The notes under the pieces are model-generated. The model saw nothing but the letters and a program-made list of their open reading frames with translations. It was not told where the DNA came from and made no database searches. 64,000 nucleotides of DNA, from positions 31,496,001 to 31,560,000 of the forward strand of contig OX597825.1 in assembly GCA_951406725.2 (NCBI GenBank). The letters run 5' to 3'. Both the position numbers and the translations under genes were made by a program. The DNA is from Octopus vulgaris. Its lineage: Eukaryota. Below, piece after piece: positions 54,321 to 54,674 of the stretch. How positions within the stretch are numbered: the first letter of the stretch is position 1; each line of letters starts with the position of its first letter.

Positions 54321-54674
54321 ATGTACCGAATTGTCTGGCTCAGTTTGCTTGGTTTTGCATACATCCAACAGTATCGGTGTTGGCGATCACCAGACCAAAC
54401 ACAAAGCCTACATCTGAACCAAATCAATCCAAGATTTTACCGAGAAAACACACTTTTTAAGCGTGCTAACAAAGTTCATAGCTTACCAGAGAATAGCATC
54501 CCACGGAGAATTTCAAGACAATCGGGCAGTGCATATTGTAACCGTATATGTTCTTATTGTTTAAATAGACATATCGTTTTGAGTTGTGTTCATTATTGTG
54601 ATCCCGGTCGAAGCGATTATGCTATGTGTTTTACTTTCTATACAGAAGCGATGCGACGGCAATCGGCCCGCTAA
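54321..54674 (+). CDS. Putative secreted cysteine-rich peptide/neurohormone precursor (117 aa; eclosion-hormone/ITP-like Cys framework)
   Basis: Non-repetitive ORF with signal-like MYRIVWLSLLGFAYIQQYRC, KR and RRISR convertase sites, six-Cys domain CNRICSYC-x8-CVHYC-x9-C and a C-terminal RR. Splice acceptor upstream and AATAAA downstream. Confidence 0.72.
   Translation: MYRIVWLSLLGFAYIQQYRCWRSPDQTQSLHLNQINPRFYRENTLFKRANKVHSLPENSIPRRISRQSGSAYCNRICSYCLNRHIVLSCVHYCDPGRSDYAMCFTFYTEAMRRQSAR

Follow-up and report, generated by a model that had tools for sequence, protein, structure and literature searches.

A spliced, single-copy Octopus vulgaris gene for a predicted secreted six-cysteine peptide precursor

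The gene and its predicted precursor

We analyzed a 64,000-nucleotide stretch of Octopus vulgaris DNA (assembly GCA_951406725.2, contig OX597825.1, forward-strand positions 31,496,001 to 31,560,000; here called the window and numbered from its first letter), in which an earlier note, made from the letters alone, had singled out a small open reading frame (ORF) as a candidate six-cysteine peptide hormone precursor. Translation of the window confirmed the ORF at 54321-54674 (+), which encodes 117 amino acids (aa) followed by a stop, with the hydrophobic start, KR, RRISR, 45-aa segment, Cys spacing of 3-2-8-3-9 and RR that had been described. We found that the locus is a real, spliced O. vulgaris gene with a non-coding first exon and one coding exon (Table 1), and that the gene is single copy.

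The queried stretch is present in 20 of 24 sequencing runs, 15 of which, from five studies, were guessed to be RNA and none of which is recorded as RNA; the other four, same-species runs X21-X24, hold almost none of its words, which is no proof of absence. Contigs were compared for 8 of the 24 runs, including three RNA-guess runs (X1, X5 and X7). In all three, contigs begin at 54318-54320 and do not cover the upstream intron, and the DNA-like run X16 runs on into the intron upstream of the acceptor. The last base of the acceptor AG is 54319, and a single base separates it from the ATG at 54321, as had been noted; the proposed splice at the 54320 junction is seen in RNA-like contigs. The splice to an ATG-free first exon is visible in two of the three RNA-guess runs, as loose 5' letters at 54318 in X1 and X5. 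Twenty-seven loose letters of X5 match one place in the window only, 21951-21977, after which come an AG and then a GT donor (at 21980, directly 3' of the first exon), and the intron is therefore 21980-54319. The first exon is single copy in a search of the genome. Because the first exon lacks an ATG and an in-frame TAA lies two codons upstream of the ATG in the spliced RNA, 54321 is the start in the observed isoform. Run X20, from organism E, uses this acceptor too, with an upstream loose end that is different and resembles a short interspersed element (SINE). At the other end, one contig reaches 55933, so the 3' untranslated region (UTR) is at least 1.26 kb long; AATAAA occurs at 55517, at 55579 and further downstream, and low-depth RNA-like pieces extend to about 57500. 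Upstream of the first exon lie TATA-like and initiator-like motifs, which we take from their consensus to form a putative core promoter.

Public records of the gene are CAI9731006 / UniRef A0AA36BCE2 (O. vulgaris, 139 aa, hypothetical) and A0A0L8GHS8 (O. bimaculoides). The 139-aa protein contains an identical stretch, and its 22 extra N-terminal residues differ in origin: two micro-exons, some 144 and 104 kb upstream, supply them. We rejected the 139-aa start for the observed isoform because of the in-frame TAA and because the micro-exons are unsupported in the runs compared; the two micro-exons are likely a prediction artefact.

The product is very probably secreted and processed, judging by its predicted architecture. 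Hydropathy in the signal region reaches 2.3 (9-residue window), and UniRef labels the O. bimaculoides orthologue "Secreted protein". A seventh Cys, absent from the earlier note, is residue 20 and likely ends the signal peptide. The precursor would enter the secretory pathway, and signal cleavage would fall after Cys20, which would leave an even six Cys. By general convertase rules, RRISR and KR are candidate cleavage sites: convertases would cut at KR and R-x-x-R, the exposed Gln would cyclise to pyroglutamate, and the six Cys would form three disulfides. Adjacent CC and C-x-C are both absent from the 45-mer, which is close to neutral with a net charge of -0.6; the two 51-mers carry +2.4 and -0.6. 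The pro-region contains neither an amidation glycine nor a repeated motif. The bounding of the 45-aa segment by RR holds in O. vulgaris but not in O. bimaculoides, which has RQ, and therefore the mature peptide may be 45-51 aa long.

Searched with the DNA and with the protein, the 2.8-Gb genome yields matches at this locus only (best other protein, E 0.6-1.0). There is no second DNA match and no repeat match genome-wide, which bears out the non-repeat origin that had been proposed, and no tandem paralogue lies within 100 kb on either side. A candidate paralogue at G000:C20:64.74 Mb (E=1.0) was judged to be chance: four Cys are in register, the first and fifth are missing, and it lies behind a microsatellite. 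In 15 Mb of local DNA simulated with a Markov model, a looser form of the Cys pattern turned up a single time, and the pattern with a dibasic site and a nearby stop did not occur at all. In the 264 kb of the real window plus flanks, the looser pattern was found in this ORF only, after a low-complexity filter; when the DNA of the whole genome was scanned for the Cys spacing, the 30,975 matches were swamped by microsatellites. The ORF had been called the only complex, stop-free frame not attributable to a repeat; it is the only one with such an architecture, but other stop-free stretches of at least 80 aa occur in the window.

Table 1. Coordinates of the gene's features in the window and of two guanylyl cyclase genes on the same contig
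Feature	Position	Strand	Remarks
Putative core promoter: TATA-like box 21722-21727, initiator-like motif 21750-21755	21722..21755	+	30 bases apart; predicted from sequence
Non-coding first exon, no ATG	21761..21979	+	5' end placed by 217-letter loose end of run X5 contig
5' UTR GT-AG intron, 32,340 bases	21980..54319	+	Loose contig ends and splice signals
Start codon and predicted signal peptide, residues 1-20, last residue Cys20	54321..54380	+	Cleavage site predicted
Pro-region: 26-residue piece, KR (54459-54464), 13-residue piece	54381..54503	+	
RRISR convertase/furin-type site	54504..54518	+	Cleavage predicted
Predicted mature six-cysteine 45-mer, N-terminal Gln	54519..54653	+	Gln likely pyroglutamate
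Cys codons of the 45-mer	54537, 54549, 54558, 54585, 54597, 54627	+	
RR (54654-54659), four-residue tail, stop	54654..54674	+	RR not conserved
3' UTR, minimum extent	54675..55933	+	One X1 contig spans 54318-55933
Two guanylyl cyclase genes	L061:3548-8629 and L062:489-5534	- and +	Domain search

The intron is full of microsatellites and repeat fragments. One part of it, 30925-32887 (+), holds retroelement fragments like those of long interspersed elements, with a weak zf-RVT match (E 0.00095), and six interstitial TTAGGG telomere-type units lie at 34663-34696. The upstream exon of X20 resembles a common octopus SINE and brings an out-of-frame ATG to the acceptor at 54319; similar SINE copies are found at 20305 (+) and 3765 (-). 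Downstream of the gene, at 57335-58797 (-), stop-free pieces that overlap the low-depth RNA-like cover resemble, by their motif, a degraded hAT-type transposase; no Pfam match backs this likeness.

Divergence between two Octopus species

The O. bimaculoides orthologue (A0A0L8GHS8) is 117 aa long and 90% identical. For organism E, 22 of 23 differences are listed over 54319-54795, so that at most one is missing; at least 18 fall in the coding sequence, and together they reproduce the O. bimaculoides protein at 117/117 codons. Among the listed differences no insertion or deletion falls in the coding sequence. All seven Cys, the frame, the stop position and R-x-x-R (RRISR to RRIPR) are kept, so the frame breaks and lost cysteines that would have spoken against the gene are absent. 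The coding changes comprise 13 non-synonymous and 5 synonymous changes, a ratio of non-synonymous to synonymous rates (dN/dS) of 0.67.

These changes are unevenly spread: 0/20 residues differ in the signal, 1/41 in the pro-region and 8/45 in the 45-mer. Residues 1-61 carry one change (dN/dS 0.13). We used the 3' UTR difference rate of 0.049 (44/901) as a reference, in one-sided, uncorrected tests for which the UTR may itself be constrained. Non-synonymous changes in the prepro part (2/156 sites) fall below this rate (p=0.017), indicating constraint; the mature part with its tail is somewhat fast (0.090, p=0.037), but the 45-mer by itself does not exceed the UTR rate (p=0.17). With three synonymous changes to go on, the 45-mer has a dN/dS of 0.6, which rises to 0.91 when the tail is included. 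From these sequences positive selection is not demonstrated, and relaxed constraint fits equally well. The comparison of orthologues that had been proposed as a check upheld constraint on the prepro part, but gave a variable mature part. Within O. vulgaris, one X5 contig carries a non-synonymous variant in the pro-region, Asn50 to Tyr at window 54468.

Relation to known families and folds

We found no Pfam family for three forms of the protein or for the O. bimaculoides orthologue, no match in a PDB sequence search and no usable match in the ESM Atlas. A word-based protein search gave the two Octopus records only, among three candidates, and no shorter proteins, and phmmer with the mature part against 1.84 billion representatives found the O. 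bimaculoides protein only, in agreement with the earlier note's statement that no family could be assigned. Because the peptide is short and fast-evolving, these blanks are no proof of absence in squid or cuttlefish. The accessions, the UniRef id and three motifs are absent from the searchable literature, which omits most subscription papers (e.g. the Sepia neuropeptidome); the gene's motifs are absent from the supplements of PMC6425005 and PMC10501145, and we found no link with the uncharacterised genes in the available part of bioRxiv 2022.06.11.495763. As judged from sequence, the gene encodes an orphan precursor: its general kind is known, but it fits none of the families tested. The proposed uncharacterised cephalopod signalling family is upheld in being uncharacterised and in its prohormone-type architecture, but the gene is demonstrated for Octopus only, and a cephalopod-wide family would go beyond these sequences.

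Kinship with eclosion hormone (EH), CHH/ITP or proenkephalin had been raised by partial likeness of the Cys frameworks, and our comparisons did not support it: the genome has a separate EH gene, and we detected neither profile nor residue-level similarity. The canonical O. vulgaris EH gene is at G000:C11:30684528 (30.68 Mb), with spacing 3-2-12-3-11; it carries the public name '---NA---'. A genome search with PF04736 gave eight matches, one over the cut-off (the C11 EH, 28.7 bits), and the orphan locus is not among the eight. PF04736 does not match the orphan precursor or its orthologue at E<=10 (positive controls, 28.7 and 26.6 bits), BLASTP of the orphan peptide against octopus EH gives no alignment, hhalign gives a probability of 0.6%, and shuffles with the Cys kept in place align to EH at least equally well in 99% or more of cases. 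We rejected the gene as the genome's EH because of the separate canonical gene on C11, the PF04736 failure and the lack of an alignment. EH has a helical fold with disulfides 1-5, 2-4 and 3-6. The helical EH/CHH-like fold that had been suggested was not recovered: a single-sequence model of a 47-residue segment shows a helix and a hairpin at moderate confidence (pLDDT 68), with disulfides not reported, and the full-length model is unusable (pLDDT 48). For the mature model, none of 219 Foldseek rows reaches E<=0.001 and none of 48,161 chains reaches Z>=5 with VIA.

EH and the orphan precursor both have six Cys with C-x3-C-x2-C and then C-x3-C, a secreted precursor (predicted for the orphan gene), and an intron beside the start codon with the remainder in one exon. 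The orphan gene differs in a long pro-region with KR and R-x-x-R, in that the mature part is the variable part, and in a central loop of 8 as compared to 10-12 in EH (six EH rows of the oyster supplement by eye, PMC8398477). Clionin (Tritonia, Aplysia, Sepia, oyster; PMC8398477) is likewise a molluscan secreted peptide starting C-x3-C-x2-C; in contrast, it continues with x10-12, C-x4-C and x12 or more, has no dibasic pro-region in the four rows compared by eye, and has conserved flanking residues that are, by eye only, absent from the orphan peptide. CHH/ITP (PF01147) peptides share a C-x2-C...C-x3-C-x8/9-C core and follow a basic site, but their first Cys lies about 15 residues before the second by eye, as compared to 3 in the orphan peptide; the orphan precursor has no Pfam match to PF01147, and the locus is not among 14 weak genome matches. 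The O. bimaculoides spiralian CHH DREP, whose second exon encodes four Cys, is not the same protein. Proenkephalin has an N-terminal Cys domain followed by enkephalin repeats. We rejected membership there because the orphan Cys domain is C-terminal and there is no enkephalin motif and no Pfam match.

Signal or weapon

The reading we favour is that of an octopus-restricted prohormone-type precursor for a pyroglutamyl three-disulfide ligand acting in the animal's own body or on conspecifics, and we give it about an even chance. We favour it because the gene is single copy, the charge is near neutral, prohormone sites are present and the scaffold is partly EH-like. The released 45-51-residue peptide would be an extracellular ligand on a receptor of the octopus itself or of a conspecific, and the rapid change of its surface around a fixed Cys scaffold suggests a signal tuned to the species (e.g. 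reproductive) rather than an old conserved hormone. By analogy with EH and ITP, with which a partial Cys framework is common, a membrane guanylyl cyclase would be the first candidate receptor class. ITP reportedly acts via a receptor guanylyl cyclase. The receptor on which EH acts is a guanylyl cyclase (PMC13311285, PMC6660194, bioRxiv 129783).

Several observations weigh against a ligand of this kind. The C-terminal RR is not conserved. Two of residues 1-66 changed as compared to 11 of the 51 residues 67-117 (mature part and tail; Fisher p=0.002), and for the 45-mer alone the contrast with the prepro part is 8/45 versus 2/66 (p=0.014), in a comparison of two species and 18 substitutions only. 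In toxins the prepro part is conserved and the mature part variable, and signalling peptides show the reverse (Koch et al. 2023, PMC10501145); measured against this account, the divergence here is the reverse of the endogenous signalling-peptide pattern. Octopus EH itself follows the hormone pattern: against a relative (73% identical), 8/37 positions differ from first to last Cys and the signals are divergent (by eye), whereas in the orphan gene 6/31 positions differ between two congeners and the signals are identical. Sequence similarity to EH stops at the Cys. The helix-and-hairpin model resembles defensin-like folds weakly, and its top matches, mytilin and brazzein among them, lie within background.

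Much of this would suit an exocrine effector instead, made as a pre-pro-peptide and serving as salivary venom or in defence, with a mature part that diversifies to meet targets in prey or microbes; this is the main rival reading, possible but rather unlikely. Toxin-like precursor evolution, with a conserved signal and pro-region and a variable mature region, is what we observed, in two species only. Conotoxin-type precursors and Mytilus MgCRP-I are alike in these respects and also in the basic cleavage site, the six fixed Cys and the narrow taxonomic range (PMC10501145, PMC4558851), the non-synonymous rate of the mature part with its tail exceeds that of the UTR in the test above, and short cephalopod salivary proteins without homologues outside are common (bioRxiv 2026.02.02.703354, Koch et al. 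2026, which sets out 44 cephalopod venom superfamilies). However, conotoxins and MgCRP-I, the latter a multigene toxin/defence-type family (PMC4558851), are multigene with positive selection demonstrated; the orphan gene is single copy, its dN/dS values are not above 1 and the 45-mer alone does not outpace the UTR. MgCRP-I also has a C-C-CC-C-C array and is cationic, in contrast to the near-neutral orphan peptide without CC. The weak fold matches to mytilin (Z 3.3, rmsd 2.4, 34 aligned residues, Foldseek E 2.8) and other defensin-like peptides point the same way as an exocrine role, but mytilin is tied with unrelated rows and the scores lie within background. Cys-stabilised alpha/beta defensins combine a helix bearing C-x3-C with C-x-C in the last strand. 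The orphan peptide differs from mytilin-type defensins in lacking the C-x-C of such folds.

The constraint on residues 1-61, set against a nearly neutral Cys domain, raises the reading, to our minds unlikely, that the 26- and 13-residue pieces of the pro-region are the active peptides and the Cys domain a loosely constrained carrier or folding aid; both pieces are flanked by basic sites, and molluscan sCAP precursors combine short peptides with a six-Cys domain (PMC5996578). The pieces have, however, no amidation glycine, no repeated motif and no family match, and residue 50 varies non-synonymously in one O. vulgaris-type run. That the gene is a highly diverged EH or clionin paralogue still acting in that signalling system, e.g. 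on the EH receptor, we consider quite unlikely. The two shared Cys motifs and the like intron position would fit this, as would the divergence of EHs elsewhere, since the spacing in oyster EH1 is 3-2-11-3-8 and identity between the two EHs of the oyster is only 24% (PMC8398477); the short central loop, the failed PF04736 and hhalign comparisons and the Cys-fixed shuffles speak against it, and EH is without such a pro-region. A non-coding transcript with a chance ORF is scarcely credible: the overall dN/dS alone does not reject neutrality and no homologue was found outside Octopus, but the ORF begins at the first ATG of the mRNA, its prepro part is significantly constrained, the Cys, R-x-x-R, frame and stop are kept with listed insertions and deletions outside the coding sequence only, and simulation produced no such architecture.

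To return to the favoured ligand, candidate receptors lie on the same contig. An array of about 11 cyclase-domain loci is found at G000:C12:28.43-28.61 Mb, 2.9-3.1 Mb from the orphan gene, six of them in open frames of 1,682-1,759 aa. The two we checked (of the 11; about 1,690 aa each, 48% identical to each other) are intronless receptor guanylyl cyclases with ANF-receptor, EGF repeats, kinase and cyclase domains and a long unassigned N-terminal part. A further cyclase-domain location is at C18:66.71 Mb. One literature search found no paper with a title or abstract on the C12 array. A distance of 2.9 Mb is no evidence of ligand-receptor pairing, and the cyclases are candidates only. It is very unlikely, but conceivable by analogy, that the orphan peptide is an octopus-specific, fast-evolving descendant of the EH/ITP scaffold and a ligand of these EGF-containing cyclases; if so, there would be a peptide-cGMP signalling system specific to the lineage, which might act as a species-recognition or reproductive signal.

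A survey of molluscan peptides reported that cephalopod nervous complexity is not paralleled by new peptide families, and that homology searches could miss divergent, lineage-specific families (PMC6425005). The orphan gene, with its prohormone architecture, its lack of a family and the absence of its motifs from the supplements of that survey, is a concrete candidate of the missed kind; since orphan cysteine-rich peptides are common in molluscs, the surprise is limited. Because the gene is single copy yet diverges in a toxin-like way, the question of signal or weapon is directly testable. In either role the peptide would be a new octopus bioactive scaffold, and the gene may be an undescribed, fast-evolving signal.
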